The translations under genes and the position numbers were made by a program. From Candidatus Bathyarchaeota archaeon (GTDB taxonomy: Archaea > Thermoproteota > Bathyarchaeia > Bathyarchaeales > Bathycorpusculaceae): DNA of 64,000 nt. The notes beneath the pieces are model-generated. The model worked only from the letters and a program-made list of their open reading frames with translations. It had not been told where the DNA came from and did not search any database. The stretch lies in NCBI GenBank assembly GCA_963806535.1, contig CAWDYC010000003.1, positions 384,001-448,000 of the forward strand. The letters run 5' to 3'. Below, in pieces: positions 1 through 50,443 of the stretch (its first letter is position 1; every line of letters starts with the position of its first letter).

Positions 1-477
1 TCCGCATGGAAGATGTTTCGGCAGTATCACTATCTAAACGGTTCTCTACCTCTAACTGCCCGATGCTATGAAGCAATCTACAATGATCAACCAATAGCAT
101 TCATCGCCGTAGTTCACACTAAAATGAAAGCAAATTACTTTCGCGTAAGCCGTCTAGTTGTCTTGCCAGACTACCAAGGATTAGGCATTGGAAAGAGGCT
201 ACTGAACTTTATCGCAGAGCTCTATACTTCGCAGTTGAATTTGCCTTTTTTTCTGGTTACTAGTAATCCTCAACTAATTCGTGGAAATCTTACAAACTGG
301 AAAATCAAGCGAATTGGCCATGCAACTCATGGTGGAAGAGAAGACAATAGAATAAACCTGGGCCTGACAAAATCGAATAGCAGAAAACGACTAACAGTTT
401 CTCTTCAATATATTCCTCAGAAAACATGCTACTCCATTCATCAAATAGTAGATGAAAATGACGATAGGTCTTGTTAA
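1..477 (+). CDS. GNAT acetyltransferase domain, Mom-like; 5'-truncated by the window edge
   Basis: Frame is open from base 1 (SAWKMFRQYHYL). Contains HYL, SRLVVLPDYQGLGIG (acetyl-CoA binding QxxGxG) and TSNP. Confidence 0.75.
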   Translation, partial: SAWKMFRQYHYLNGSLPLTARCYEAIYNDQPIAFIAVVHTKMKANYFRVSRLVVLPDYQGLGIGKRLLNFIAELYTSQLNLPFFLVTSNPQLIRGNLTNWKIKRIGHATHGGREDNRINLGLTKSNSRKRLTVSLQYIPQKTCYSIHQIVDENDDRSC

Positions 478-489
478 AGGTGCCAAAAT

Positions 490-891
490 ATGAATGAAAG
501 AACCCTTGAGAGACGCTTGGAACTGTTGAAGCTTGAAGGAAACGGCTTGCAGACTTCAGAAATTGTGAATCAATTAAGTGCAAAGTATGGTGTTACTCCA
601 CGTGCAGTTTATGCTGATTTTGAAACAAGAAGCAGCTGGCAGCCCATACTTGAGAACACAAAAGAATCAATACTGAAGATTCTTAATAGACATGAGCAAC
701 TTTATCGAAAAACCTTAGTCGCCTACATGCAGGCTAAATCTGATCATGCCCGTGTAGCCGCTTTGAATCTTTTACGGCAAATAAACGTTGATGTAGCTGA
801 GCTAACAGGCGCCAAGTTGGAGAACTCAGCTCAATTGAATGAAATACACATAAAGTGGGAAGACCCAGAAGTTTGCAAAAAACAATACTAA
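490..891 (+). CDS. Putative terminase small subunit (N-terminal HTH)
   Basis: HTH-like N-terminus (SEIVNQLSAKYGVTPRAVYAD), helical body, short C-terminal strand (EIHIKWED); overlaps the start of TerL. Confidence 0.6.
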   Translation: MNERTLERRLELLKLEGNGLQTSEIVNQLSAKYGVTPRAVYADFETRSSWQPILENTKESILKILNRHEQLYRKTLVAYMQAKSDHARVAALNLLRQINVDVAELTGAKLENSAQLNEIHIKWEDPEVCKKQY

Positions 892-2159
892 TAAGATACA
901 AGCCTCACCCAGGGCAAATTGAATTTCACTATCACCCAGCGCGATTTCGAGTGCTTAACTGTGGACGCCGCTGGGGCAAAACCATTGCAGGAGCCAACGA
1001 GTTCATCCGCCAAATGTGGGAACAAGGTGAAGGAATGGAAAAAGAAGGAATAGTGGGCTTCGCTGTAGCGCCTACTTATTGGCATACACAGCGGCAATGG
1101 AGTGAATTCTTCAACTACTGTCCATCTTATCTTGTCGAAAAGGTGTTGCGCGCCGATCGACATGTTATTCTCAAGGGCGACCGAAACATTTGGTTTAAGA
1201 GCGCAGATAATCCAGATTCACTTCGAAGCCAAGGTGTAAAGGTTCTCTGGGTAGATGAAGGCGCTCAAATCAGTGAGGAAGCTTGGAATCTTGCATTGAG
1301 ACCATCGTTGATGGACCAGAAAGGAATCGCTTTCTTCACAGGCACACCGCGTGGACATAACTGGTATTTTCGACTATGGACTCGAGGACAAGATCCTTCA
1401 CAGAGTGACTATAAGAGTTGGAGTTTCCCAAGTGTCAACAACCCATATTTGGATCCGAAAGAAATTGCTTCCTTCGCAAGGGATATGCCTGAATTAGCTT
1501 ATCGACAAGAAGTTTTAGCCGAGTTTTTGGAAGATATCGGTTCAGTTTTCCGAGGAGTAGACCGCATAGTCAAAGGTAACCTTCAACCTTTCGAAAGCAA
1601 AATTCATTATGTTATGGGATGCGACCTAGCAAAACTTGAAGACTTCACAGTACTCGCTGTTTTGGACCAAAACGGGCACTTATGCGCTTTCGACAGGTTT
1701 AGCCAAATAGATTGGGTGTTTCAACGTAAACGCATTGTTCAACTTGCACAGCGATATAATGCCAGTTTGCTTATTGACAGCTCAGGCGTCGGAGACCCCG
1801 TCTGTGATGAACTTTACCGAGAAAACGTTCGAGTGGAAGGATACAAATTCACCAACGCCTCCAAGAAAGAGCTTATCGAGAACCTAAGCATGATGATTGA
1901 AAACGAACAAATTTCAATACCAAATATTCCAGAATTAATTAACGAACTTAAGCTATATGGTTACAAAACAACACCGAGTCGAAATGTGCAATATGGAGCA
2001 CCCGAAGGATACCATGACGATTGCGTAATCGCTCTAGCTCTGGCTGCTTGGAAATTAAAACACATTCCACCGTCAGGAAAAGCTGTCTTCTTTCTTGAAC
2101 ACAGCAAACCTCATGCAAGTCGCTATGACTTCAACAATTTCTCTGACGAGGAGTATTAA
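855..2159 (+). CDS. terL: Terminase large subunit (real start probably TTG at 873)
   Basis: PHPGQ adenine-binding motif, Walker A CGRRWGKT, Walker B LWVDE, coupling motif TGTP, RNase H-like nuclease residues GCDLA, DSSGVG, HDDCVIA. Confidence 0.93.
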   Translation: MGRPRSLQKTILIRYKPHPGQIEFHYHPARFRVLNCGRRWGKTIAGANEFIRQMWEQGEGMEKEGIVGFAVAPTYWHTQRQWSEFFNYCPSYLVEKVLRADRHVILKGDRNIWFKSADNPDSLRSQGVKVLWVDEGAQISEEAWNLALRPSLMDQKGIAFFTGTPRGHNWYFRLWTRGQDPSQSDYKSWSFPSVNNPYLDPKEIASFARDMPELAYRQEVLAEFLEDIGSVFRGVDRIVKGNLQPFESKIHYVMGCDLAKLEDFTVLAVLDQNGHLCAFDRFSQIDWVFQRKRIVQLAQRYNASLLIDSSGVGDPVCDELYRENVRVEGYKFTNASKKELIENLSMMIENEQISIPNIPELINELKLYGYKTTPSRNVQYGAPEGYHDDCVIALALAAWKLKHIPPSGKAVFFLEHSKPHASRYDFNNFSDEEY

Positions 2160-2288
2160 AGTCGATTGAAAAACATAGAGTTGTTCGCTTGAATTAATTG
2201 CGGGTCAGCTAAAATACGAGTTTTTCCGAACATATTAGCAATTAAAAACTCTAGTAGTCCATGTGATTTTGTCAGAGAGGAGCAAAAA

Positions 2289-2343
2289 GAGCCCCAGCCT
2301 CCTAAGTTGGGGGTCGAGGGTTCAAATCCCTCCCCGCCCGCCA
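2289..2343 (+). repeat. att copy 1: 3' 55 nt of tRNA-Arg(CCT) without the 5' acceptor strand
   Basis: GAGC C CCAGC CTCCTAA GTTGG GGGTC GAGGG TTCAAAT CCCTC CCCGCCC G CCA gives an anticodon arm (CCT), T arm, acceptor 3' strand and CCA; there is no GGGCGGG 5' strand upstream. Confidence 0.9.
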
Positions 2344-2642
2344 GAAGCCAATTTTAACAATTAAAACCAAAAAGAACATTATTTTTTGATTTTAACCCAC
2401 TATTGTCGTTATTATTCTATCGAGCGTTTGAACCCTCGCATTCTACAGCCGTTTTTAGGGTGCAAGCGAACAATTCAAACACCAGTCAATATATGAACGG
2501 TTTTTGTCGCAAGTGTCTGTGGGTTGATGAAATACTTGGTTACCAAATTCTCCATTTCGTCTCTCATTCGGCGGAATGCTTCAATAGCTCACACAATAAG
2601 TTTTAAGATCTCAGCTCAGAAGTAATAATCAGAATTCGCTGG

Positions 2643-3419
2643 ATGTGCAAGAAAATGGATAAGAATGCTCTTTACGAAGCAATCTTTAAAAGAAAATCAA
2701 TTAGGGATTATGACTCAACGCCGATTGACTCAAATCGTCTCGAAGAGATTTCAAGAAATTTGCAGTCCTTAAAGCCTTTGTTACCAGGGATAAAGACAGA
2801 GTTCAAGATTATTTCGCCCAATCAGGTAACCAGAAAACTTGGGAATAAAGCGCCTCACTTTATTGCAGCATTCTCCGAAGCCAAGGACGCCTACAAAGTC
2901 AACATCGGTTTTATGCTTCAGCAAATGGACCTTTATTTTTCAGCGACTGGATTAGGCAGTTGCTGGTTGGGCATTCCTCAACCAACCAAAGACTTAACAG
3001 ACTCTTCAAATCTGGAATTCATTATTTTGATGTCGTTCGGAAATTCAAAGGAAACACTATACAGGACCAGTGCTTCGGAGTTCAAAAGAAAATCTCTTAC
3101 GGAAATAACAAACATGGAGGGCGCCGATGAATTGTTAGAACCAGCGCGTCTTGCTCCATCAGCGGTAAACTTACAAAACTGGTATTTTACCGGTAACATA
3201 AATGCAATTCATGCCTATTCCTCCAAGCCTAACTTTCTTAGAACTATTGTAGGCGGGAGCTACTATCCGGTCAATATGGGTATTGCCCTTTGCCATTTGC
3301 AACTTGCTGCAGAACACAAGGATTGGAAAACTAAATTCGTCTTCGACAGTTCAAAAGATAAAAAGCCACCCAAGAATCTGGAGTATGTTGCGACTTTGGA
3401 TATCGAAAAGTCAAATTGA
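2643..3419 (+). CDS. Nitroreductase family protein (two nitroreductase-like domains)
   Basis: KRKSIRDY, GLGSCWLG, KRKSL, ARLAPSAVNLQNWYF, MGIALCHL. Confidence 0.88.
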   Translation: MCKKMDKNALYEAIFKRKSIRDYDSTPIDSNRLEEISRNLQSLKPLLPGIKTEFKIISPNQVTRKLGNKAPHFIAAFSEAKDAYKVNIGFMLQQMDLYFSATGLGSCWLGIPQPTKDLTDSSNLEFIILMSFGNSKETLYRTSASEFKRKSLTEITNMEGADELLEPARLAPSAVNLQNWYFTGNINAIHAYSSKPNFLRTIVGGSYYPVNMGIALCHLQLAAEHKDWKTKFVFDSSKDKKPPKNLEYVATLDIEKSN

Positions 3420-3488
3420 GAGTAACAGAAATCTATACTTGGCTTAAATATGCGGATCCAAGGGTCACCGCTATCCGTCCCGCTATGT

Positions 3489-3911
3489 TTATAGAAGCTC
3501 GATTGGGTAACCTTTTGGCTTGAGTTTTTTATATTGTGTTTCTTCATCCGCTGTAATGCAGATTGTTTTTTTGTTTTCTGCAATGGCAACTGGGAGAGCA
3601 TCATAAAACGTTATTTTTGTTTCGTATGCTATTTCGCCTGTTCTATTGGTGAGGTTTTCGTCCAGATGAATCACGTTCATGCTGAGGTTGAAAAGTTGAG
3701 CAAGGGCGATTTTCCATTTCGCAGTATCATAGTCTGGTTTGTATCTTAAAGCGTTACCAACTTCACAAATTAGAATTTCTGATATTACCAACTCTGCTGT
3801 ACCTTGGATGTATGAATCTAAGAGTTTTAGTGCTTCATCTGATTTTGTTTCTTTGCTAAACCATTTAACAACTACTGAAGAATCTAATACTATTTCGCGG
3901 CGTCTCGCCAT
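3489..3911 (-). CDS. vapC: VapC PIN-domain toxin (TA module 1)
   Basis: IVLDSSVVVKWF, EVGNAL, TFYDA, ITADE; start refined to MARRRE. Confidence 0.9.
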   Translation of the reverse strand: MARRREIVLDSSVVVKWFSKETKSDEALKLLDSYIQGTAELVISEILICEVGNALRYKPDYDTAKWKIALAQLFNLSMNVIHLDENLTNRTGEIAYETKITFYDALPVAIAENKKTICITADEETQYKKLKPKGYPIELL

Positions 3912-4111
3912 TTTCTTATCTCCTTGGCGCCATTCCAATCAGCTTTGCTTTCCAATCGAAGGTTTTTAATTGCCTCTACGGCGAATTGCATCTCTTCTCT
4001 GCGTGCGGCATCTTCAAACGCTTTTCTTGCAACATCGCTCCAGTTTACATTTTTGCAGCGCTTCATGCGCCCTTTTAGCTCTTCTGGAACTCTTACTGTA
4101 ATGTTACTCAT
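3890..4111 (-). CDS. vapB: RHH-type VapB antitoxin (TA module 1)
   Basis: MSNITVRVPEELKGRM...VNWSDVARKA, C-terminal EIRKWRD; overlaps the toxin start. Confidence 0.85.
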   Translation of the reverse strand: MSNITVRVPEELKGRMKRCKNVNWSDVARKAFEDAARREEMQFAVEAIKNLRLESKADWNGAKEIRKWRDAAK

Positions 4112-4205
4112 GCACATCGCACCACGCACATACTAAATGCACACTATAGAAGTAGGCACAGCGTAAAAACCTTTCCGCCCAAGACTAACCAAACTGCAGA
4201 AGCAA

Positions 4206-4254
4206 CAGCCTCCTAGGTTGGGGGTCGAGGGTTCAAATTCCTCCCCGTCCGCCA
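4206..4254 (+). repeat. att copy of the tRNA-Arg(CCT) 3' half
   Basis: 46/49 identical to 2295-2343. Confidence 0.92.
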
Positions 4255-4277
4255 TATGCATCTTCGCCATTTTTGAA

Positions 4278-4676
4278 TTATTCCATTTTGTCTATTGGAA
4301 TTGCGACCTTGCACTTCTTTAGCAAATCTGTGTCCTGTGTTACCAACTTCACTTTTTGTTTTTCAGCAATGTAGGCGTAGGAAGCATCGTAGAAAGTGAG
4401 GTTCCGTTCTATAGCAATTGCCAAAACATCTGCGAGGGAATCAATTGCCATCTTCTGTAGTGGGGCTATTGCTTCAGAAAAAATTGAGGCAACTCTTCTA
4501 GGATTCTTGAGCTTTCCTTGTTTGTTTTCCCGCCAAAGCACATTCCCAACTTCGTATTCGGTAAGTGAACTCACCGCGCATTCATCAACGTTGAAGGGAA
4601 TGGATGATATAAGCATCGGATAAAGTGCGGAGGTATCTATGAGATACTTACATCTCTTTCCTTGTCGTTCTGACAT
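4278..4676 (-). CDS. vapC: VapC PIN-domain toxin (TA module 2)
   Basis: YLIDTSAL, YEVGNVLWR, LTFYDASY, LVTQD; start refined to MSERQG. Confidence 0.9.
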   Translation of the reverse strand: MSERQGKRCKYLIDTSALYPMLISSIPFNVDECAVSSLTEYEVGNVLWRENKQGKLKNPRRVASIFSEAIAPLQKMAIDSLADVLAIAIERNLTFYDASYAYIAEKQKVKLVTQDTDLLKKCKVAIPIDKME

Positions 4677-4866
4677 CATCGATCCACTCTTCAGGTTTAA
4701 CGTCCATGAGGTCTCTGAGTTCTTTTGCGATTTTTTGTGCATTTGTTTTCTTTTCGGCTACGAGTTCCTCAAGGGTTTTCTCTACAGCCAGTTTTAAGTC
4801 GACTCCTAGCTTTTCAGCCTCAAGCTTCAAGCTTTTCTTGATCCTTACAGATAGCACTTCTGTCAC
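4648..4866 (-). CDS. vapB: RHH-type antitoxin (TA module 2)
   Basis: VTEVLSVRIKKSLKLEAEKLGVD...EEWIDDVRTTR; GTG start preceded by a GGGGTG Shine-Dalgarno. Confidence 0.85.
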   Translation of the reverse strand: MTEVLSVRIKKSLKLEAEKLGVDLKLAVEKTLEELVAEKKTNAQKIAKELRDLMDVKPEEWIDDVRTTRKEM

Positions 4867-4877
4867 AATTTCACCCC

Positions 4878-4903
4878 GTATACACAATGATTAAAATGTA
4901 TAC
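4878..4903. promoter_or_regulatory. Putative antitoxin operator: two GTATAC palindromes 20 bp apart, next to a TATA box
   Basis: GTATAC at 4878 and 4898; CTTATATA on the minus strand at about 4910-4917. Confidence 0.55.
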
Positions 4904-4925
4904 AAGCAATATATAAGAATGATGT

Positions 4926-4978
4926 GAGCACGAACCTCCTAAGTTGGTGGTCGAGGGTTCAAATCATTTCCCCCGCTA
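4926..4978 (+). repeat. att copy of the tRNA-Arg(CCT) 3' half, 3' end decayed
   Basis: 4935-4965 is 30/31 identical to 2298-2328. Confidence 0.88.
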
Positions 4979-5073
4979 ATAAAACAGTTATACATCTAAC
5001 AAATCTTGCGAATTTATTTTCATCAATTAGAGATATAATCTGAAGATTTGAAATCACATTGATTTGTTATGAT

Positions 5074-5226
5074 TTAGCTTTTAGATGTTTATAGTAACTG
5101 GTTTATGTATTGGTTGGCAGTTTTGTTCTGTTTTTTTGTTACTCATTTTATGGCATCGCTGATGCCTGTGGAGTATTGAACTGCTTTCGTGCGTTTGTCC
5201 ACAGGCACGCTTGGCAAGCTAACGTT
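5074..5226 (-). pseudogene. Diverged duplicate of the 3' end of the asparagine synthetase-like gene
   Basis: Aligns with 6410-6562: NVSLPSVPVDKRTKAVQYSTGISDAIK versus NVGLPSVLVDKPKKAVQYSTGINDAIK. Confidence 0.9.
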
Positions 5227-5372
5227 CACTGCATTGATAAAATAATGCTTGTCTGGCAAGCGCAAAATGAAAGTTAAACGGCGAGGTAAGATAAGTGTTT
5301 GAAGATCAGCAGAAACGGAAAGATGAAAGTGAATATTTCTAAATCGGGTGTTTTTAGCCAAAAGGCACTTAT

Positions 5373-5398
5373 GTATGCATTCGATATCTATTGTATAC
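5373..5398. promoter_or_regulatory. Putative antitoxin operator: GTATGC and GTATAC 20 bp apart
   Basis: Immediately upstream of the 5408 start; same spacing as 4878/4898. Confidence 0.5.
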
Positions 5399-5407
5399 GT
5401 GGTAGTG

Positions 5408-5728
5408 ATGACGCTTAAACCTTTAGCAGTAAGAGTACCTTCAGAAGTAGAACAAGAAATCAGCGAAATCGTTAAGGAAGAAAAAGTTGATAAAGCAACA
5501 GTTGTGAGGAACCTCCTCGAAATAGGTCTCGCCGAATGGCGCAAACAAACTGCTCTTGATCTTCTGCAGAAGGGAAAGATCACTTTTGCTAAGGCTGCAG
5601 AGATGACCAAGCTTTCGCTCTGGGAATTTGCTGACCTTATTAAGCAACGCAGTATTGAATGGGTCAGACTTGAACCTGAGGAAATAGAAAAAGAGTTTAG
5701 GGAAGCATCAGCGGCGAAGCGTAAGTGA
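5408..5728 (+). CDS. UPF0175-type antitoxin (RHH + HTH; TA module 3)
   Basis: LAVRVPSEV...DKATVVRNLL and GKITFAKAAEMTKLSLWEF; start refined to MTLKP. Confidence 0.85.
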   Translation: MTLKPLAVRVPSEVEQEISEIVKEEKVDKATVVRNLLEIGLAEWRKQTALDLLQKGKITFAKAAEMTKLSLWEFADLIKQRSIEWVRLEPEEIEKEFREASAAKRK

Positions 5729-6237
5729 AACCGTTAGTTTTCGATTCCACCCCTTTGATTTACCTAACAAAAGTTGGACTAGGCCGAATCTTCAAAGAAT
5801 TACAAGTTGAAAAGTTAACATCACCTTCGGTCAAAAGAGAAGTTGTTGATGAAGGCAAAAACAAAGGCATTCCTGACGCAATAGTTTTAGATAGATTATT
5901 TGCTAGTGGAGTTTTTAGAGTTTGCAACCCTACGAACAAGCTATTCCTAACCCGATTGTCAGAAACTCACGGTCTTCATTTAGCTGACGCAGAAGTTTTG
6001 GCGCTTGCCCATGAGCATACAGGAATTGCAGTGATGGATGATGAAGTAGGTAGGAAGACCGCGAAGGTTTACGGCATTGATTATGCGGGTTCCTCTTACA
6101 TTTTGATGCGAGCGGTTTGTGAAGAGATAATTTCAAAAGCGAAGGCTAAGCAAGCGGTTAACGATATGGTTTCTCTGGGTTGGCGATGTAATGTTGAGAG
6201 TTACAGGAAAATTTTGGAAACTTTAGAAAAACTCTAA
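5725..6237 (+). CDS. PIN-domain protein, DUF3368 type (TA module 3 toxin)
   Basis: VFDSTPLIYL, SVKREV, LHLADAEVLALA, MDDEVGRKTA; GTGA overlap with the antitoxin. Confidence 0.88.
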   Translation: MKPLVFDSTPLIYLTKVGLGRIFKELQVEKLTSPSVKREVVDEGKNKGIPDAIVLDRLFASGVFRVCNPTNKLFLTRLSETHGLHLADAEVLALAHEHTGIAVMDDEVGRKTAKVYGIDYAGSSYILMRAVCEEIISKAKAKQAVNDMVSLGWRCNVESYRKILETLEKL

Positions 6238-6295
6238 GAGCTACATACGGGTAAACAAAACGATTATTGGTTGAACCGGTGCAACGGTGCACGTC

Positions 6296-6324
6296 GTCGA
6301 AGCCAAATCCCTCCCCGCTCGTCT
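6296..6324 (+). repeat. Most decayed distal att remnant of tRNA-Arg(CCT)
   Basis: CAAATCCCTCCCCGCTCG (6304-6321) is 17/18 identical to 2323-2340 and is preceded by GTCGA. Confidence 0.7.
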
Positions 6325-6409
6325 ACTAACTGTTGGTCAAGTAGCAAATTTTACGATTTTATTCAATTAGACGAGATTGAAAAGAATTGAAGACAGCATT
6401 GGTAATGAT

Positions 6410-7857
6410 TTAGCTTTTGGATTTTTCAAGTAACTCGTTTATGTATTGGTTGACTGTTTTGTCTTGTTTTTTTGCTACCCGTTTTATGGCGTCGTTGATG
6501 CCTGTTGAGTACTGAACTGCTTTCTTGGGTTTATCCACCAGCACGCTTGGCAAGCCAACGTTTAATGCCACTTTTCTCAGCACCAGCTTCCTCAAGGTGT
6601 CTTCTTTTGGCTCCATTTTGCATTCAATCGGTAAAGTCAAAGCAAATTCGGCAAGCTCATAGGATGCAAAAGGCAAACGCAGCTCAACGTCATGGAAAAT
6701 TGTGATTTTGAGGTCCCGTTCAAGATTACTCTCAAAAATATTGGCTACATCACTAAACATTGTTTTTCGGACTTTTTCGGCGCCATCTTTGCAGTATTCT
6801 TTGACGTAGCGTTGGTATCCTCCGAACAATTCATCTGCACCTTGCCCAGCCAACATTACGTGGAAACGTGCTTCAGCCGCTTTTTCAGCAACCCAATAAA
6901 ACGGCAAACCAACGCTGGCTTTAATCGGGTCAGCCTCCTCGATGAGCGCTACGACTTGAGGTAAGGTATTTTCAAGTCAGAATCCTTGAATAAATCGACT
7001 TGAAGAGGCAAATTTAGTTTTTCTGATGCTTCAATTGCTTCTTCGGTTTCAGGCTGATTTTCCATACTCACGTGGAACAGGTGAACTTTTACTCCAAGTT
7101 TGCTTGCCAAAAAAGCGACTAAGCTGCTGTCTAATCCTCCTGAAAACGCAACGGCAACCTCTTTCCAGCCCACTTGTGCGCCGTCTGATTGATTCTTCAA
7201 GAAGAACCCCAAGCCTCTTTGCTGCCTCATCCAATGATATCGAAGCAGGCTCATTGTAAGTGAGTGTTTTAACGGGTTTAAACTGGAATCCTTCGCGATT
7301 TAAAAATCCGATGTTTCCTGGCGGAAAAGATTGCGGGTTTTCTATGCCCAGCAGCCATAGGGCTTTTCGGTTTGTGGCAACTGCGGCGATGGCTTTGGTT
7401 TTCGCCATAATAGAGCGGTTGAACTCCCACTGGGTCTCTTCCTGCCCCAATCCAACCTTCTTTAGCAATTAGAAAAGAGTAATCTCCATCTGCATTCGCC
7501 ATCAGCGTTTGCAGTAGGGCTTCGCAGTGAAGCGGTTTCTTGGCAACCTCTTCCATAACTGCATTTTTTGGTATAGGCGAATAGATTCTGCCTTCAAAAA
7601 GAAGTGCCGCATCTTCTAACTGCAAAAATTCATAGCCACTTGACACTAGCAGGTTTTGAGGAAACATAGCCGATGGCTGTTGAAGACTCGATGCCTTGTC
7701 TGCTAAGAATGCCGGGGCTTTTCTCGAGAACAGTTTTCTTTGGCGAAACCAACCCAAAATGTGAAGGCTGCCTTCCGCTAAGCGTGTTGAGAACATCAAG
7801 AAGGCGGTCAACGACATTATCGCCCTCTTTATCTAATACCGCAACAGTTGTTTTCAT
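6410..7857 (-). pseudogene. asnB: Asparagine synthetase B-like gene broken by four frameshifts
   Basis: Consecutive ORF pieces carry FEGRIY, DGDYSF, RDPVGVQPLYY, AFSGGLDSS, GQGADELFGGY, ELRLPF and KKAVQYSTG. Frame switches occur near 7645, 7400, 7170 and 6960. Confidence 0.85.
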
Positions 7858-7949
7858 AATTAAACCCTCAATACCAAATACAAAATGAAATAGTATTGGT
7901 AAAACATTAATCTTTAATCAGTATAACCTTCGCTTGAGGAAACAATAGC

Positions 7950-9284
7950 TTGCCAATCCTACCCATAGACACTGGCCGTTATGGAACGCCAGAAATGCTA
8001 AAAATATTTGAAGAAGAAACACGTCTTCAGAAGCTACTTGATGTTGAAGCTGCCTTAGCTTTAGCGCATGCTGAAGTAGGAAACATCCCAAACAAAGATG
8101 CCCAAAAAATCGCTTCGATGGCAAACACAAAACACGTTAAAGTTGATCGAGTAAAATCTATTGAAAAAGAAATAAAGCATGATATTGCATCTCTGGTTCG
8201 AGCACTTTCAGAAGTCAGCGGGTCAAGCGGTGCCTACGTACATTTGGGCGCAACAAGCTACGACATCGTCGATACCGCGAATGCGCTCCAGCTAAAAGAT
8301 GCCTCCGCACTTATTGAAAAAAGACTTGTAGAACTCAAAACCATTTTGCAGAAACAGGCTGACCAATACAAAGAAACCATTATGATTGGCAGAACTCACG
8401 GGCAACATGCCTTGCCGATCACTTTGGGCTTCAAGTTTGCTGTTTGGGGCTACGAAATAGAAAGGCAAATTGAACGGTTAAAGGAATGCAAAAAAAGAGT
8501 TTTGGTTGGCAAAATAAGCGGCGCAGTAGGTACGCAGGCAGGTTTAGGCGAAAACGCACCAATGATTCAAGAGTTTGTTATGAAAAAGCTTGGACTTAAA
8601 GCGGCTGAGATTTCAACACAAATCGTGCAAAGAGACCGCTACGCTGAACTCATATGTATATACGCAATGATTGCTTCTTCGCTTGAAAACTTTGCAACAG
8701 AAATACGCGAGCTGCAAAGGCCAGAAATAGCAGAAGTTTTCGAAGCCTTTGAAGCATCCAAGCAAGTTGGAAGCTCCACAATGCCTCATAAACAGAATCC
8801 GGAGACATGCGAGCGTGTTTGTGGCTTAGCTCGAATCGTTCGAAGTCTTAGCACGCCGGCATTAGAAGATATGATTACTTGGCACGAGAGAGATTTAACT
8901 CAGTCTTCGGCTGAACGATTTATTCTGCCAGAATCAAACATCTTGCTTGACTACATACTTAGCCTAATGTGCAATATTGTGCCAAATCTTCGAGTTGATA
9001 AAGAACGGATGATTCAGAACCTTAGCATAACTCAGGGACGGGCAATGTCAGAATCAGTAATGATGACCTTAGCAAAGAAAGGTGTGAACAGGCAAGAAGC
9101 TCATGAGTTGCTAAGGAAACTAACTATACAAAGCGCTTTGGAAAAGAAAGAATTCAAGCAGATTCTTCTAAAGGACAAACTTGTTAGCAGCAAATTAACT
9201 GAGAAGGAAATTGACGAAGCGTTGGACCCGAAGAATTATTTGGGCACCGCAATTAAACAAGCAGAAAAATTTGCTAAAAGCTAA
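7950..9284 (+). CDS. purB: Adenylosuccinate lyase
   Basis: HLGATSYD, GRTHGQHA, GSSTMPHKQNP. Confidence 0.97.
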   Translation: MPILPIDTGRYGTPEMLKIFEEETRLQKLLDVEAALALAHAEVGNIPNKDAQKIASMANTKHVKVDRVKSIEKEIKHDIASLVRALSEVSGSSGAYVHLGATSYDIVDTANALQLKDASALIEKRLVELKTILQKQADQYKETIMIGRTHGQHALPITLGFKFAVWGYEIERQIERLKECKKRVLVGKISGAVGTQAGLGENAPMIQEFVMKKLGLKAAEISTQIVQRDRYAELICIYAMIASSLENFATEIRELQRPEIAEVFEAFEASKQVGSSTMPHKQNPETCERVCGLARIVRSLSTPALEDMITWHERDLTQSSAERFILPESNILLDYILSLMCNIVPNLRVDKERMIQNLSITQGRAMSESVMMTLAKKGVNRQEAHELLRKLTIQSALEKKEFKQILLKDKLVSSKLTEKEIDEALDPKNYLGTAIKQAEKFAKS

Positions 9285-11527
9285 AAGTCTCCAAGGGCCT
9301 TCTGCTTAAATTCTTGCTCACTAGTCAGTTTGTCCCATTCGTCCTTTTTTACAAAGCCGCCAACTTGTTCCTTTATTTTCTTCGCCAACCTTGGGCCAAC
9401 TGTCGGCAAATTAGTTAATTCTTCGATTGATGCGTGTTTTATATCTTCGATAGTGTGATATCCTGCGTTGAAAATTATGCGGCCACGAACTCTTCCTACC
9501 CCTTCTAAATGTACAATGGGTAGAAGTTCTCGTTTTATCCCTTTAGATACTCGTTCAATTAACTCGTTAGTTAAGGGTAAGATTTCTTTTGCTTTGAAAA
9601 GCGGTGCAATCTCATCAGTTGCATGAAGCAGCCATTTTGCATTTTCAATAGTTCTGTACAAATCGCCTGGTTGAACATTATATTGTTCTATGAGTTTTTC
9701 TTCGCTAACTTCTTCAATCCAACTTTTCATTACCAATGAAGTTTTGATTTCTCCAAGAAACTGCTCATATGTTAAATGATCATCCCACTCGTTTGGAGCA
9801 TCAACAAATAGCTCGTCCCGATGCTGTTCCAATTGAACCGCCAGAACATCACATTCGCGCGCGTAAGGTCTCATTACTGGCCCCATGTCCGGCGTATGAG
9901 AGATCAAATGGAACACCCCGAAATCTGTCAGTTTAGCAGGCTTGTTTCTTAGGGCATCGCGTATTACGACCGCAGAAAGAGGATCAATATAGAGTTCACT
10001 TACCCTTTTCCCAAACTTTGTTGCAAAAATGTCGTCTCCATCAACATCAATCATTTCCTCTTCGTAAAGCCACTTAAGGATTTTAGCGATGATACCCTTG
10101 ATAGCTTTTACATCATATTGATAAGCATAGAAAGTCTTTCCGAAAAACTCATAAATGCCATTTTCCGAGTGCGCAAAATCTGAAGCCACTGTAGACAAGA
10201 CGTGTCCCCGGATGATTTTTTCGACACCCAGTCTAGACCAAATTCGCTCAGGCTTAGCCATAATATAGCCTTCCATTAGATAATCGGCTTCGTCTGAGGT
10301 TTTGGCGATTAGGATTGATTCGCCCACTTTGTCGTATTTTGGACGCCCTGCTCTACCAGCCATTTGCTTATACTCAAGTACGCTTATTGGATAATTGCCA
10401 TAACCTGGTTCAAAACGCCTGTAATCTTGAATAATAACCGTACGCGCGGGAAGATTTACTCCAAACGCCAATGTGGGAGTTGCAGTTAAGACCTTTATTT
10501 TTCCCTCTTTAAACGCGTCCTCGATTATTTTACGATGTGCTCCTGCTAAGCCCGCATGGTGAAAAGCCGCACCACATTGGACAAATTGGGCAAGGGTTTC
10601 GCTGATTTGGGTGCGCTCGCCTGCGGAAATGATTTTGGCTGCCTCATGCTCTAATGTTCTTTTCATAGGCTTGGATAAGGCATCGCCTGTGTGTTGCGCA
10701 ATGGTTTTAGCGGCTGAAACCGCGTTCTTCCGTGTTGAAGCAAAAACAAGTGCTTGTCCGCCGCCTTTAATTGTGTTTAAAACTAAATTAACTGTAGGAA
10801 TATGTGTTTTTTTCTCTATTTTCCTTGCGGAGCCATCTTTGTATTGTATTTCATCGTTTAAAACAACACCTTCCTTAAGGCTAACGGGGCGCCATTCTGT
10901 AACAATATATTTAGCGTTTATCCATCCAGCAATTTCGTCAACGTTACCAATAGTTGCGCTCAAAGCTAAAACTTGAAGGTGAGGATTCACCTGCAGAAGC
11001 CTAGCTAACACAACCTCAAGAGTTGGACCACGCCCTGCGTCATTTAAAAGATGAACCTCATCTGCCACTACAAGCGAGATTTCATCCATCCATTTGGCAC
11101 GGTGCCGAAGAAGCGAATCGGCTTTCTCGTTGGTGGTTACTATTATGTCGTAGCGTTCAAGCCAATTGTCGGCAGTGTCAAAGTCACCTGTGCTTACACC
11201 AACTGAAATTTTTCGACCATCCTTCTTTCGAATAGATGTGTATTTTCTAAAATCCTCGAATTTCTCGCTTGCTAAAGCGCGCAGTGGAGCAAGATAAAGC
11301 ACTTTGCCATTTTTTTCGAGCACATGTTTGAGACCGCAGAGTTCCGCAATCAACGTTTTACCCGACGCTGTTGGGCTCGCTAAAACTATGTTTTGACCTT
11401 CAAGCACTCCTGCCCGTATGGTGTCTTCCTGAGGAGGAAACAACTCAGCAATCCCCAAGTTAAGCAATACGTCCTTGACGGTTTCTGGAACAGGCAACTC
11501 TGCAATCTTCAAATTGAATCGCCACAA
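9281..11527 (-). CDS. hel308: Ski2-like DNA helicase Hel308/Hjm
   Basis: PTASGKT, DEVH, LSAT, AFHHAGL, GVNLPA, QMAGRAGRP, C-terminal HhH. Confidence 0.95.
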   Translation of the reverse strand: MWRFNLKIAELPVPETVKDVLLNLGIAELFPPQEDTIRAGVLEGQNIVLASPTASGKTLIAELCGLKHVLEKNGKVLYLAPLRALASEKFEDFRKYTSIRKKDGRKISVGVSTGDFDTADNWLERYDIIVTTNEKADSLLRHRAKWMDEISLVVADEVHLLNDAGRGPTLEVVLARLLQVNPHLQVLALSATIGNVDEIAGWINAKYIVTEWRPVSLKEGVVLNDEIQYKDGSARKIEKKTHIPTVNLVLNTIKGGGQALVFASTRKNAVSAAKTIAQHTGDALSKPMKRTLEHEAAKIISAGERTQISETLAQFVQCGAAFHHAGLAGAHRKIIEDAFKEGKIKVLTATPTLAFGVNLPARTVIIQDYRRFEPGYGNYPISVLEYKQMAGRAGRPKYDKVGESILIAKTSDEADYLMEGYIMAKPERIWSRLGVEKIIRGHVLSTVASDFAHSENGIYEFFGKTFYAYQYDVKAIKGIIAKILKWLYEEEMIDVDGDDIFATKFGKRVSELYIDPLSAVVIRDALRNKPAKLTDFGVFHLISHTPDMGPVMRPYARECDVLAVQLEQHRDELFVDAPNEWDDHLTYEQFLGEIKTSLVMKSWIEEVSEEKLIEQYNVQPGDLYRTIENAKWLLHATDEIAPLFKAKEILPLTNELIERVSKGIKRELLPIVHLEGVGRVRGRIIFNAGYHTIEDIKHASIEELTNLPTVGPRLAKKIKEQVGGFVKKDEWDKLTSEQEFKQKALGDF

Positions 11528-19152: not shown

Positions 19153-20076
19153 CTATGTTGTCGATTTTTGAACTTTAGTCGCCTGCAAGAGACCTTTCAT
19201 GTAATAAAACCGAATTAATGGATGCATGTATAGAACTGTAGGCTCACGAGTCTGGACTGCCATAAATAACCCTGTAAAAGGGGACAAAATAAATCGGCGG
19301 ATAACACCAAGTTTTGTTACAGGCGGGGGCTTATTTGTTTCTTCGCCTATTTTTCGCCATATTTCATACAGCTGTGTTCCATACCAATATTGATGATTCA
19401 GTTCTTGTTTCAAACTATTTCGCAAATGGACTGATTGCACATTATAATCAACGATCCATTTGTAGCCGGCACCATCAATTTTGTAGGCCAAAGTGGTTTC
19501 AACACCAGCGTTTACTCGCAGCTTCGGAAAACCGCCCAGCGCCCGGATTATTTTTGTTTTGTAAATCGTATTATCTAAGGTTTTGCCGAGAGTGAAAGCA
19601 GACATGTCTCTGGACTTTAGCCAAGAAGCTAAGTTTGCCTCTCCGCGATATTTTTTACCCACATACTCCTGCATTTTTTTAACGCCAAGGGGCTTATCTG
19701 CAAAACGCATCCCAGAAGCAGCGGTAACACTGGAGTTTTCAAGCAGTGAAGGAATTTTCTGCCACCAATCAGATGCTAACAACAGGTCTTGCTCGAAGCT
19801 TACAAAGAAATCCGATGAGACTTGTTCTAAAGCTGTATTTGCGCCATCGCTTATTCCGTGGCCTTTGTTTGGGATAACTGACCAGCCAAAAGACGACGCG
19901 ATTTTTGGTGTGCCATCATTGCTTGCGTCGTCGACTATTATTTTTTTATTTACGAATTCTTTAGGAATTACTTCATTTATTCTTTGTAGGACTATAGGTA
20001 GAGTTTTGGCACCGTTTTTAGTCCACATAACTAAATCTACTTTGCCAATCATTCCATTCCCAAGCGAGGATTTCAA
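19153..20076 (-). CDS. Glycosyltransferase family 2
   Basis: IIVDDASNDGT; EQD at the DxD position. Confidence 0.82.
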   Translation of the reverse strand: MKSSLGNGMIGKVDLVMWTKNGAKTLPIVLQRINEVIPKEFVNKKIIVDDASNDGTPKIASSFGWSVIPNKGHGISDGANTALEQVSSDFFVSFEQDLLLASDWWQKIPSLLENSSVTAASGMRFADKPLGVKKMQEYVGKKYRGEANLASWLKSRDMSAFTLGKTLDNTIYKTKIIRALGGFPKLRVNAGVETTLAYKIDGAGYKWIVDYNVQSVHLRNSLKQELNHQYWYGTQLYEIWRKIGEETNKPPPVTKLGVIRRFILSPFTGLFMAVQTREPTVLYMHPLIRFYYMKGLLQATKVQKSTT

Positions 20077-48101: not shown

Positions 48102-48214
48102 TTCACAAACGAGCCAGATTTGACTAAACGGGTATGATTCCTCACGCTAAAACTTAATTATTAAAGAAAATTTTCATGAATTTTGACCTATCGCCGGCTC
48201 ACTTGTAGGTCCAT

Positions 48215-50443
48215 TTACCGTTTAACTCTTTGGGGGGGTAAACGGACTATGAAAGTTGTGCCTTTTCCTTCGATGCTTTCAAAGGTTACTGTTCCGCCTA
48301 ATCCTTCAGTCATGCGTTTAACGACTGCTAAGCCAAATCCTTGACCCTTAGATTTTGTTGTCATCATAGGCGTGAAAAGCTTCGGTTTGACATCTTCGGG
48401 AATCCCAATTCCTGTATCTTTCACAGTTATCAAAATGTCATTAGTTTTCTTGTCAGTAAACGCGCGAATAGTAAGTTTTCCGCCATTAGGCATAGCTTGG
48501 ACTGCATTCAAAGTTAAATTGGAGAAAATACGCTTGAGATAGTCAGAGTCAGCCATAATTTTGTTTGCATTATCTTCAACTTTGACTTCCACTTTAATTT
48601 CTTTGGGAACCCCGTTTTTAGCCAGTATTTCATCGATTATCGATTTTACTTCTGTTTCTTGTGCCCGTGGGTTGAGAGGTCTAGCATAGTCTTGAAGATC
48701 GGCCACAATCTTGTTGATATACTCAATGTTTTTCTCAATCTCCGTCAAACTTTCAAGCGCATTCGTCTTGCATTCCGAATCTCGAACAGAAGCCAACTCA
48801 ACCTTGGCTAGATAAACGTCGCTTGTAATTGCCTGCAGAGGATTGCGAATATCATGCCCAACCATGCCAGCAGTAGCACCGATAGCAGCTAAACGCTCAG
48901 AATCCTGCAACTGTTTTTCCAGTTTTTTGCGTTCTGTTATATCATTAAAAAGAGAGCCAATTCTGCCTTTAGCGTATGAAAATTGATAAACATCAAACCA
49001 GCGCTTTAGGCTTTGGTTATAGTTAACCATATGCATAGGTATGCTTGTCTTGTCAACCTGTTCGTACGCATCAAACCAGTATTGCTCCAGGTCAGGCGCA
49101 AATTCTTTAGCTCTCTTACCAACTACAAAGTCTGCTTTAAGACCAGTTTGACGCTCGTATGCAGAGTTGACATTAAGAAATTTGAAATCCACCACTTTGT
49201 CATTGTCATATATTAGTTCAACTAGTTGAAATCCATCTTGACTGTTATCAAATATTTGGCGGTGAAGATGCTCGCTTTCCTCTAAGGCTTTTTCAGCTTT
49301 CTTTCGCTCATTGATGTCTCGGAATATTAGCACTACACCCGTGGTATTGCCTTCTTGGTCTTTTATTGGGGCTCCGCTGTCATCAATTGGAATCTCGGTG
49401 CCGTCTTTTCGAATCAGTACTGTGTGGTTAGCCAACCCTACAACAATGCCTTCTTTAAGGACTCGATCAACTGGGCTTTCAACATCAGCATGAGTCTGTT
49501 CGTTGACTATTTTGAATACGTCTTTCAACCCTTTTATCGAAGCCTCATTTAGTGTCCAACCGGTTAATTCTTCAGCGACTCCATTCATGAAAACAACGTT
49601 ACCTGACGTATCGGTAGCGATGACTGCATCACCTATACTTGAAAGAGTGGTCGCCCAGCGTTGCTCGCTTTCTCTAAGCGAAGCTTGAACCCGTTCCAGT
49701 TCAGTTTTAGAGGCAGTTACAGCTTTCAAGTCAGAGGTCATCTTGTTAAAAGCATGGGAGAGTTCGGTTATTTCGTTCTGTCCCTGTATTTCTATTTTGT
49801 AATCCAGATTTCCCAAGCCAATCGTACTAATTCCTTTCTGCAGTCCTGCAACCGAGTTTAGTGTCCTACGAAAAACCAAAAGATAAATTGTTAACAAGAA
49901 AGCTCCAAATGTTCCGACAAGCGATAAAATGAGCAGAGTGCTTGTAAAATTAGTTTGGTGAACTTGGTCGCTTATAGATTGTGATAGCTGAGAGGCGTCC
50001 GAAGTAAGTGTTTGACTTTGAAGAGCCATATTACTCCATCTGAATTGAAATGCAGGATCAATTCGAACACTCACATTTCTGGGAGAGTTGTGCAAGTAGG
50101 TAGTTACATCTTCAAACTGTGCGTTGAGGTTTTGGAAATCTTCTGCCACGTTGCCGACAAGCGTTTGCTGCTGATCGCCTTTGACATCTAAGCTCTGCAA
50201 ATCGCTCGAAAGCGAAGAAAGAATGGAATTCCATTTGGAAAGCTGCAGATCTTCCTGATAGAGAAAATAATCGATCGATACGCTGTTTAGGCTACTTGCT
50301 CCCCGTTCGATATTGCCTGAAATTACTTGCTGATTAGCCAGGTAAGCCGTTTGCTGTTCTGTATTTACAATTGAGGCGGCAATCATAATTAACACGATTG
50401 TGAAAGCGATTATGCAAATTATGAATTGAGTTTTTATTCGCAT
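48215..50443 (-). CDS. Membrane sensor histidine kinase (2 TM, HAMP, 2 PAS, HisKA, HATPase)
   Basis: GHDIRNPL H box, NLTLNAVQA, DTGIGI, GQGFGL; PAS motifs SIGDAVIATD and VNSAYE. Confidence 0.93.
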   Translation of the reverse strand: MRIKTQFIICIIAFTIVLIMIAASIVNTEQQTAYLANQQVISGNIERGASSLNSVSIDYFLYQEDLQLSKWNSILSSLSSDLQSLDVKGDQQQTLVGNVAEDFQNLNAQFEDVTTYLHNSPRNVSVRIDPAFQFRWSNMALQSQTLTSDASQLSQSISDQVHQTNFTSTLLILSLVGTFGAFLLTIYLLVFRRTLNSVAGLQKGISTIGLGNLDYKIEIQGQNEITELSHAFNKMTSDLKAVTASKTELERVQASLRESEQRWATTLSSIGDAVIATDTSGNVVFMNGVAEELTGWTLNEASIKGLKDVFKIVNEQTHADVESPVDRVLKEGIVVGLANHTVLIRKDGTEIPIDDSGAPIKDQEGNTTGVVLIFRDINERKKAEKALEESEHLHRQIFDNSQDGFQLVELIYDNDKVVDFKFLNVNSAYERQTGLKADFVVGKRAKEFAPDLEQYWFDAYEQVDKTSIPMHMVNYNQSLKRWFDVYQFSYAKGRIGSLFNDITERKKLEKQLQDSERLAAIGATAGMVGHDIRNPLQAITSDVYLAKVELASVRDSECKTNALESLTEIEKNIEYINKIVADLQDYARPLNPRAQETEVKSIIDEILAKNGVPKEIKVEVKVEDNANKIMADSDYLKRIFSNLTLNAVQAMPNGGKLTIRAFTDKKTNDILITVKDTGIGIPEDVKPKLFTPMMTTKSKGQGFGLAVVKRMTEGLGGTVTFESIEGKGTTFIVRLPPQRVKR

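Follow-up and report, generated by a model that had tools for sequence, protein, structure and literature searches.

Two questions are raised by a stretch of archaeal DNA in which a row of small gene modules is separated by copies of one tRNA 3' end: how such a row was built and whether it still exchanges its modules. The window, meaning the whole stretch that we analyzed, is 64,000 nucleotides (nt) long (C3:384001-448000) and comes from a peat Bathyarchaeia archaeon (Candidatus Bathyarchaeota) known from a metagenome-assembled genome (MAG), here called G000. Between window positions 2289 and 6324, copies of the 3' part of tRNA-Arg(CCT), here called attachment (att) sites, alternate with a nitroreductase gene, two VapBC toxin-antitoxin (TA) pairs (VapBC-1 and VapBC-2, abbreviated V1 and V2) and a UPF0175/DUF3368 pair. 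The original prediction had offered two explanations, either an integron-like array served by an integrase in trans or the residue of repeated integrations in which only addictive TA modules survived. We consider it probable that the locus is a frozen accretion array of trans-mobilized cassettes resembling cis-mobilizable elements (CIMEs), situated in a hypervariable island between the genes for aspartyl-tRNA synthetase (AspRS) and asnB. According to this reading, the ~56-nt att copies would be the footprint of tyrosine-recombinase integration into the 3' part of tRNA-Arg(CCT), and VapBC-1, VapBC-2, and probably the nitroreductase module too, would be discrete att-bounded units that carry no recombinase and have moved between species and loci. 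Most likely the modules entered singly at the leftmost att by a crossover close to the anticodon loop, and integrase-bearing elements like those found at this tRNA in relatives would have provided the recombinase in trans. Related genomes are designated by G-numbers other than G000, contigs by C-numbers and fetched loci by L-numbers; the loci from relatives were picked for having hits.

All att copies of the array lie on the plus strand in the same orientation. Their identity was measured against the 78-nt tRNA-Arg(CCT) of G000 itself, and a profile for nhmmer was built from the att copies of relatives. Copy 1 (2288-2343) corresponds to tRNA positions 23-78 with 55/56 identical nucleotides (profile E = 5.9e-20), copy 2 (4201-4254) to positions 25-78 with 93% identity over 54 nt (E = 1.5e-15), and copy 3 (4926-4978) to positions 24-63 (at 4926-4965) with 92% identity over 40 nt, its last ~15 nt having diverged (E = 1.4e-12). 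A fourth site, at 6296-6324, is a relic with a 15/15 core at 6304-6318 and an nhmmer E value of 0.066; its position is confirmed by alignment with a pseudo-tRNA-Arg beside asnB in G013 and with an att beside asnB in G127. The 17-nt att core with at most three mismatches occurred three times, versus 0.09 expected, and none of 100 shuffles reached three occurrences. The predicted same-orientation tRNA copies were thus borne out by BLAST, profile search and shuffling. The possible relic at 3456-3485 (plus strand), which forms the left boundary of VapBC-1, is heavily decayed and was picked up neither by BLAST nor by the nhmmer profile; it can be seen solely by positional homology, since the same place just ahead of the VapC-1 stop codon is the live tRNA 3' end in G002, G014 and G104 and a decayed att in G020 and G004. 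With Rfam, the sole match in window positions 1-9000 was a subthreshold tRNA at 2281-2332 (25.8 bits versus a cutoff of 29). Three of the five att copies are decayed, and the suggested increase of decay with distance from the terminase element did not hold up: decay is not monotonic, being most advanced in the relic between copies 1 and 2. Within the genus, att copies fall into length classes starting at tRNA position ~22/23, 28-39 or 46-51, and the window copies belong to the long class.

The modules between these sites recur as units in relatives. The att-VapBC-1-att unit aligns with the same junctions across G000, G002, G012, G014, G020 and G004, and VapBC-1 stands alone directly behind the live tRNA in G002, G104 and G014. 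Of the 26 VapC-1 loci examined in a species-level genome collection, an att (E <= 0.01) lay no farther than ~150 nt away in 15, of which 6 were flanked on both sides. The junction at att copy 2 is also present in G002, G012, G014, G104 and G127. Likewise, VapBC-2 with both of its junctions aligns across G000, G127, G049, G112, G105 and G022, and G112 and G105 have it alone right behind the live tRNA. The two pairs exist in both orders, tRNA-V2-att-V1 at the canonical tRNA locus of G049 and V1-att-V2-att-asnB in G000 and G127. The nitroreductase gene has a noncoding leader of 300 nt (2344-2642, plus strand) that is conserved with it; the module follows an att in G107, where the leader is 89% identical and starts inside the att, and in G075 (leader 92% identical) the live tRNA is 1.5 kb ahead of it. 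The junctions across 3419-3489 and 5239-6296 were seen in G000 only. Multiple same-strand att copies within one fetched locus are present in other genomes as well (at least two copies in 21/41 and three to four in 6/41, counts that do not estimate prevalence because of how the loci were picked), and in 1 of the 21 multi-att genomes the array is at tRNA-Arg(TCT). The comparison of cassette content and order that had been proposed as a check therefore shows variation, with units recurring in other orders and other places. The evidence for gain, loss and reordering of cassettes is comparative, consisting of these other orders and loci and of the tree conflict described below.

Additional small units were observed at tRNA-Arg(CCT) in relatives. 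These att-bounded units hold a Fic/DOC gene (G008), a PIN-containing pair (G020:C84), a DNA-alkylation-repair and radical-SAM pair, and a DUF7669 pair (G024), and such loci include L032:7159-8389, L033:1314-2320 and L023:9030-11712. On its tRNA-proximal side, VapBC-1 is directly adjoined by a GH100-like glycoside hydrolase gene in two settings, the canonical tRNA locus of G020 (L020:10370-11464) and the asnB island of G127 (L036:8112-9206), which suggests that multi-unit blocks can move together.

The phylogeny of VapBC-1 points in the same direction as its distribution. VapBC-1 DNA is 84 to 87% identical to that of G000 in G002, G012, G020, G104 and G113, and the AspRS DNA of these genomes is 74 to 78% identical. 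The VapBC-1 tree pairs G002 with G104 and G059 with G084 with high support, while the AspRS tree puts them in different well-supported clades. Approximately unbiased (AU) tests rejected the clades of the other gene in 4/4 comparisons (p = 0.003, 0.033, 0.024 and 0.0005). This conflict with a single marker indicates, at the sequence level, that VapBC-1 spread horizontally between species.

These results bear on an alternative in which full-size integrase elements or proviruses integrated repeatedly at a tRNA-Arg(CCT) copy and decayed to addictive TA pairs and a few cargo genes, the modules themselves never having moved. Integrase C-terminal stubs are found directly after att copies in G022, G012 and G110, and therefore larger elements do decay inside these arrays. 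A truncated integrase beside the pseudo-tRNA of G013, a stub in the G049 island, the unequal degrees of decay among the window att copies and a terminase large subunit (TerL) module without capsid and portal genes also fit such a history. However, identical junctions (att, a few nucleotides, VapC stop codon) in six genomes are not expected from independent decay, and both the two orders of V1 and V2 and the conflict of the VapBC-1 tree with AspRS are left unexplained. In addition, the window modules contain no integrase stub: tblastn searches of the window array with three relatives' integrases at E <= 10 returned noise. We therefore regard decay without movement as unlikely. Of the predicted residue of repeated integrations, the decay of elements and of att sites stands.

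The surroundings of the array show how the sites came to be there. The array is the right-hand part of a variable island of ~20 kb between convergent AspRS and asnB genes in G000. In 10/22 relatives from which the AspRS region was fetched, AspRS and asnB are convergent direct neighbors 70 to 350 nt apart, while five genomes (G000, G013, G049, G101 and G127) carry differing inserts. At the end of the 3.1-kb G013 insert, beside asnB, stand a tyrosine integrase in truncated form and a decayed copy of tRNA-Arg in which 5' exon, intron and 3' exon are all recognizable. The G127 insert consists of a peptidase, an FMN reductase, PadR, the GH100-like gene, VapBC-1, att, VapBC-2 and att, followed by asnB. 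The G049 insert contains an integrase stub, a TerL module as in G000, an att (positions 32-78, 98%) and unrelated genes, including an ABC ATPase, before asnB; the G101 insert contains the TerL module and then 10 kb of other genes, and att is absent. Because the inserts differ and the gap is closed in 10 of the 22 relatives, the tRNA-derived sites must have come with the inserted DNA. The 20 kb upstream of the window hold housekeeping genes as far as AspRS, followed by unknown open reading frames (ORFs), a PIN/MazE pair, beta-helix and PQQ-repeat proteins, and a module of ParB-like, GNAT, small-terminase-subunit-like (TerS-like) and TerL genes. The PIN/MazE-type TA pair is at L002:10283-10914 (C3:374283-374914), and a related pair lies beside an att relic in G101 (L113/L114). 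A ~55- to 69-nt repeat with an internal inverted repeat (TTGACT...AGTCAA) and a following T-rich box is present in three copies in the G000 island upstream of the window (C3:371478-371530, 372401-372468 and 375189-375242) and in one copy in G013 (L021); judging from its sequence, it looks like a shared promoter or operator.

The tRNA from which the sites derive is on another contig. As a check, the original prediction had suggested extending the contig leftward to an intact tRNA-Arg(CCT) and an integrase; neither was found by ARAGORN, BLAST, the att profile, Pfam or PHROGs. ARAGORN, with and without introns, detected no tRNA on C3 between 341924 and 436175, the profile detected no further att over C3:368001-394000 (which includes 16 kb to the left of the window), and Pfam and PHROGs detected no integrase in the 20 kb upstream. 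The live gene is intact and intronless at C5 complement 48190-48267, amid ordinary genes, adjoined by an iron-containing alcohol dehydrogenase (Fe-ADH) family gene and an FKBP gene, and this neighborhood is conserved in G013, G003, G016, G019, G049, G075, G112, G079 and G101. Thus the intact target tRNA that stands at the proximal end of a classical tRNA-gene island is missing from this one. In BLAST searches the 5' 30 nt of the tRNA matched only on C5, and no 5' exon was present near the array. We set aside the possibility that the half-sites are 3' halves of a split tRNA, because an intact intronless tRNA-Arg(CCT) exists on C5 and a 5' half is absent near the array.

Recombinases that could have acted in trans are found at tRNA-Arg(CCT) in relatives. 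In G016 the 3' end of the tRNA is abutted by an intact 295-amino-acid (aa) tyrosine integrase, the distal att being 5.4 kb away, and in G007, whose contig ends thereafter, by an intact 430-aa integrase. Between 2289 and 6324, neither integrase nor transfer genes were found with Pfam, PHROGs or tblastn with three relatives' integrases. Integration of the type known from the Sulfolobus virus SSV, which splits the integrase, was rejected as an explanation of the window sites, as there are no integrase fragments at any window att. Among viral contigs, the closest relative of the G007-type integrase (46% identity) abuts tRNA-Ser(GCT) and not tRNA-Arg, and no real relative of VapC-1 was found, the one match having 40% identity over about 40 residues. 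Two side observations concern the 5' side of this tRNA (L041:10333-11753 and 19191-19225, L027:7674-7760 and 9924-10030, L021:11982-12530). A second class of elements, one of which carries an OLD-family ATPase/nuclease (G007), duplicates positions 1-22 or 1-35 there, and a distinct integrase type lies beside the tRNA 5' end in G105 and G013, the two proteins being 62% identical to each other.

The leftmost att offers a view of how units may have entered. The junction between TerL and att is common to G000 and G049, with left flanks that are ~83% identical, and to the right of the att the two genomes have unrelated DNA. In both genomes positions 34-78 of att copy 1 are pristine, while positions 23-33 have one mismatch in G000 and three in G049. 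On the simplest reading of these sequences, this orphan att would have been used again after the split of G000 and G049, with a crossover near the anticodon loop and replacement of its 3' part by that of the incoming site.

Another explanation requires no recombinase; in it, the 56-nt att copies, identical to a tRNA segment conserved across the genus, serve as homology patches only and host homologous recombination inserts, deletes, reorders and imports cassettes. It is in keeping with the absence of integrase at the locus and of an intact close homologue from G000, and with the mosaic relationship of the island between G000, G049 and G127. Homologous recombination between tandemly integrated elements is also noted in a review (PMC8371274). 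Also in its favor is the UPF0175/DUF3368 module, which is flanked by ordinary homology in the form of a ~310-nt direct repeat; the repeat joins att and intergenic DNA to the final ~180 nt of asnB, and its arms (4926-5238 and about 6262-6577) are 85% identical over 171 nt. Beyond att copy 3, the left arm (repeat copy A) consists of intergenic DNA and a ~180-nt asnB 3' fragment at 4979-5239, which was recognized by a tblastn match to the asnB C terminus. This fragment groups with the asnB genes of G000 itself, G013 and G127 (100/100 support) on a long branch. The UPF0175/DUF3368 pair and the asnB duplication are both absent from the G127 locus, whose array otherwise matches that of G000, and therefore the module was gained after the G000/G127 split. 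In the reading that we prefer, this module came in by another way than the rest, on DNA from a related genome that would have brought along an att, intergenic DNA and a 3' piece of asnB and left the flanking repeat; an incoming circle that recombined at an att would fit. On the other hand, the sharp change from diverged to pristine sequence near the anticodon loop of att copy 1, present in two lineages, fits a fixed crossover better than a random one, and the att copies themselves would first have been made by an integrase, as integrases and their stubs sit at these sites. An origin of the array by homologous recombination alone is thus, in our judgment, quite improbable.

A further alternative is that the array is still active, the att beside the TerL module being a dedicated capture site at which cassettes are still shuffled by a recombinase encoded elsewhere in the G000 genome. 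The TerL-att junction common to two genomes (G000 and G049) that differ in the cassettes on its right, the refreshed 3' part of its att, the composition of each unit as gene(s) plus one att, the arrays of three to four att in 6 of the 41 other genomes fetched, and several more distant tyrosine-recombinase ORFs in G000 (e.g., C6:86980-87867) could be taken in its favor. However, no IntI-type integrase was found, and the integrases of relatives score 25 to 77 bits, far below the cutoff of 265 for the integron integrase TIGR02249. No attC-like sites were seen, the cassettes lie in both orientations, and decay has affected three of the five att. For the integrases adjacent to tRNA-Arg(CCT), G000 has close relatives only in the form of a pseudogene (C3:472426-473646; 36% identity) and a stub of 39 aa (on C5), and no intact close homologue was found. 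We consider an active platform very improbable. Rather, the array in G000 is probably frozen now, because it has no live tRNA and no integrase and its att sites are decaying.

Several observations weigh against the frozen, trans-mobilized array that we prefer. The G016 element, the sole complete integrase-bearing element seen, duplicates only positions ~46-78, and no recombinase is tied to the long att class (start at 22/23) to which the window copies belong. No att at E <= 0.01 lies within ~150 nt in 11/26 VapC-1 loci, and homologues of VapBC-2, the nitroreductase and the UPF0175/DUF3368 pair are also found away from any att; these are therefore ordinary chromosomal genes as well. The reversed order of V1 and V2 is known from one contig of one MAG, G049, with 9% contamination. 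The species tree is that of a single gene, AspRS, and the groups compared in the AU tests were named after the trees had been seen. Finally, gene conversion from the live tRNA could mimic the pattern in att copy 1, and such conversion or homologous recombination via the 56-nt repeats could give some of the same patterns without an integrase.

An artifact of assembly, by which the repeated att copies led the assembler to join unrelated pieces, has to be kept in mind for a MAG, but it is hardly credible here. Several junctions are independently present elsewhere (V1-att-V2-att-asnB in G127, TerL-att in G049 and att-nitroreductase in G107), C3 is 505 kb long in an assembly of 12 contigs, and the repeats are only ~55 nt and mutually different. 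In a screen of 24 sequencing runs, the best share of sampled words was 9%.

The gene content proposed for the spacers was confirmed by Pfam and, for the VapB proteins, by NF050799 (Sulfolobus-type VapB) at scores below its cutoff. The nitroreductase (2643-3419, plus strand) is of the TM1586 type (PF14512, E = 1.5e-47). Of the first TA pair, the PIN toxin VapC-1 (3489-3938, minus strand; PF01850, E = 1.7e-15) has 64 to 88% amino acid identity in relatives, and the 3' end of the VapB-1 antitoxin gene (3890-4129, minus strand; NF050799, E = 8e-9) overlaps the vapC-1 start. In the second pair, VapC-2 (4278-4742, minus strand; PF01850, E = 7.5e-8) has an internal ATG that may be the true start and is preceded by VapB-2 (4648-4887, minus strand; NF050799, E = 7.6e-5). 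Judged by gene layout, both would be type II VapBC systems, in which the PIN toxin gene is preceded by a small overlapping antitoxin gene. The fourth module encodes a UPF0175 protein, a putative antitoxin (5348-5728, plus strand; PF03683, E = 3.4e-11), and a DUF3368 protein, a putative PIN-like toxin (5725-6237, plus strand; PF11848, E = 3.8e-5, below the Pfam cutoff). Both VapBC pairs thus lie on the minus strand and the other two modules on the plus strand, and cassettes that face both ways need their own promoters. The right border of the island is asnB (6410-7857, minus strand), which was recognized as Pfam Asn_synthase fragments in several reading frames. Compared with the intact 481-aa G013 protein (L021:9906-11351), it has at least three frame changes, which reflect either a pseudogene or indel errors of the assembly. 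A catalase-peroxidase gene on C5 of G000 is likewise split in two (L003:14542-16166).

To the left of the array, the window begins with the 3' part of a GNAT-domain ORF (1-477, plus strand; start upstream of the window; Pfam GNAT, E = 5e-9; phrog_11143, E = 1e-24). It is followed by a small ORF (490-891, plus strand) without a family hit in Pfam or PHROGs, which is named TerS-like for its position before TerL and is conserved beside TerL in relatives, and by TerL itself (855-2159, plus strand; Terminase_6N and Terminase_6C; phrog_2, E = 2.8e-41). Together with a 244-aa ORF and a ParB-like gene, these form a 4.2-kb module at C3:381950-386100 (window about -2050 to 2100), and homology of TerL with copies elsewhere in relatives stops at window 2064-2101. 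The module is common to G049, G101, G013:C36, G071 and G078, and it recurs in 20 other genomes of the genus with TerL amino acid identities of 69 to 90%. No portal or capsid genes were detected by Pfam or PHROGs beside it in the window and the 20 kb upstream, and it may be a relic or a satellite-like element.

The tRNA gene itself varies within the genus. tRNA-Arg(CCT) exists in three forms, intronless (G000), with an insert of 29 to 66 nt between linear positions 22 and 23, and with an insert of 27 to 30 nt after position 9; insert-bearing loci are L018:9890-9997, L020:11672-11815, L021:11442-11577, L022:9860-10004, L023:11580-11712, L027:9924-10030 and L031:9852-9990, and L016:9736-9840, L024:10001-10108 and L029:9932-10039. 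The inserts at 22/23 differ from species to species, and the one in L022 includes a stretch from positions 43-58 of the tRNA itself. The long att class, too, has its 5' edge at position 22/23. A wider hypothesis, which we hold only tentatively, would join these observations: peat Bathyarchaeia may possess an integron-like exchange system assembled from different parts, in which self-promoted units of 0.7 to 1.3 kb, often TA pairs, each with one ~56-nt tRNA-Arg(CCT) site, pass from species to species and are taken up at the live tRNA, or at the orphan att beside the terminase module, via a trans-acting tyrosine recombinase, the 22/23 introns being scars of the same recombination. These loci offer a concrete test set for the old idea that integration of mobile elements shapes archaeal tRNA gene structure (PMC3293823). 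If the units did move in trans, tRNA-specific integrases can carry very small pieces of DNA along in uncultured archaea, an att copy can stay a landing pad after its separation from the tRNA, and TA pairs spread by such a route.

Comparison with known systems places the array among accretion islands. A cassette in an integron likewise consists of gene(s) plus one recombination site, the arrays of sites are one-directional, and insertion apparently occurs at one end. Vibrio superintegron arrays, moreover, are rich in TA pairs. Here, in contrast, IntI, attI and folded attC are all missing; an IntI-type integrase is absent from the array and the 20 kb upstream, the joints are tRNA-derived direct repeats (as judged without an attC model), and the cassettes have no common orientation. 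Integrons and integrase-less attC clusters, as described in bioRxiv 10.1101/2022.02.06.479319, do include archaeal integrons. The idea of an integron-like array with integrase in trans is therefore retained as regards discrete, exchangeable cassettes, given their recurrence, reordering and tree conflict, and abandoned as regards membership among integrons.

The closest likeness is to the CIMEs of streptococci, which, according to PMC5704250, keep attL and attR, have lost integration and transfer genes, and accrete in tandem with integrative conjugative elements (ICEs) and integrative mobilizable elements (IMEs) at the 3' end of a target gene, newcomers entering a resident att. As in those elements, the units here are tandem, flanked by direct att repeats derived from the target, and without detected integrase or transfer genes. 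Unlike them, they have an archaeal host, measure 0.7 to 1.3 kb (one gene or a TA pair), show no conjugative partner, and form an array detached from the live tRNA; their mobilization here is proposed from sequence comparisons. The ssrA islands of Dehalococcoides, as outlined in PMC3146451, also form tandem arrays bounded by direct repeats of a small RNA gene 3' end, with strain-variable content; 15 of them lack an integration module and were suggested to be CIMEs. They differ from the array here in their 20-bp repeats, serine recombinase (DsiB, CcrB related), size of several kilobases and rdhA cargo, and their arrays are still attached to ssrA. Similarly, the tycheposons of Prochlorococcus (bioRxiv 10.1101/2020.12.28.424599) are reported to integrate successively at one tRNA and to push older elements inward, leaving scattered partial tRNAs and fragmented integrases, but they have their own tyrosine recombinase and replication genes, neither of which is carried by the units here.

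Among archaea, tyrosine-recombinase elements of Thaumarchaeota re-use one site and thereby form arrays (PMC6563490), and tandem integration is described more generally (PMC8371274). NitKor-E1 consists, as presented in PMC6563490, of TerS-TerL, VapBC and an integrase with no other virus genes, and the TerL module here resembles it in having terminase genes without other virus genes. The elements characterized in these two sources are multigene, not rows of 0.7-kb integrase-less TA units exchanged between species; rows of such subkilobase units passing between archaeal species were not found in the literature on such elements, though supplementary files may list archaeal arrays. In bacteria, integrase-less islands are documented to stack at tRNA or tmRNA sites, and the array is thus no new kind of system but the archaeal counterpart of a known phenomenon, the piling up of mobile islands at tRNA sites. 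Its new features are that the host is an archaeon, that the units are very small and dominated by TA pairs, that there is evidence of their exchange unit by unit between species, and that the array has come loose from its tRNA.

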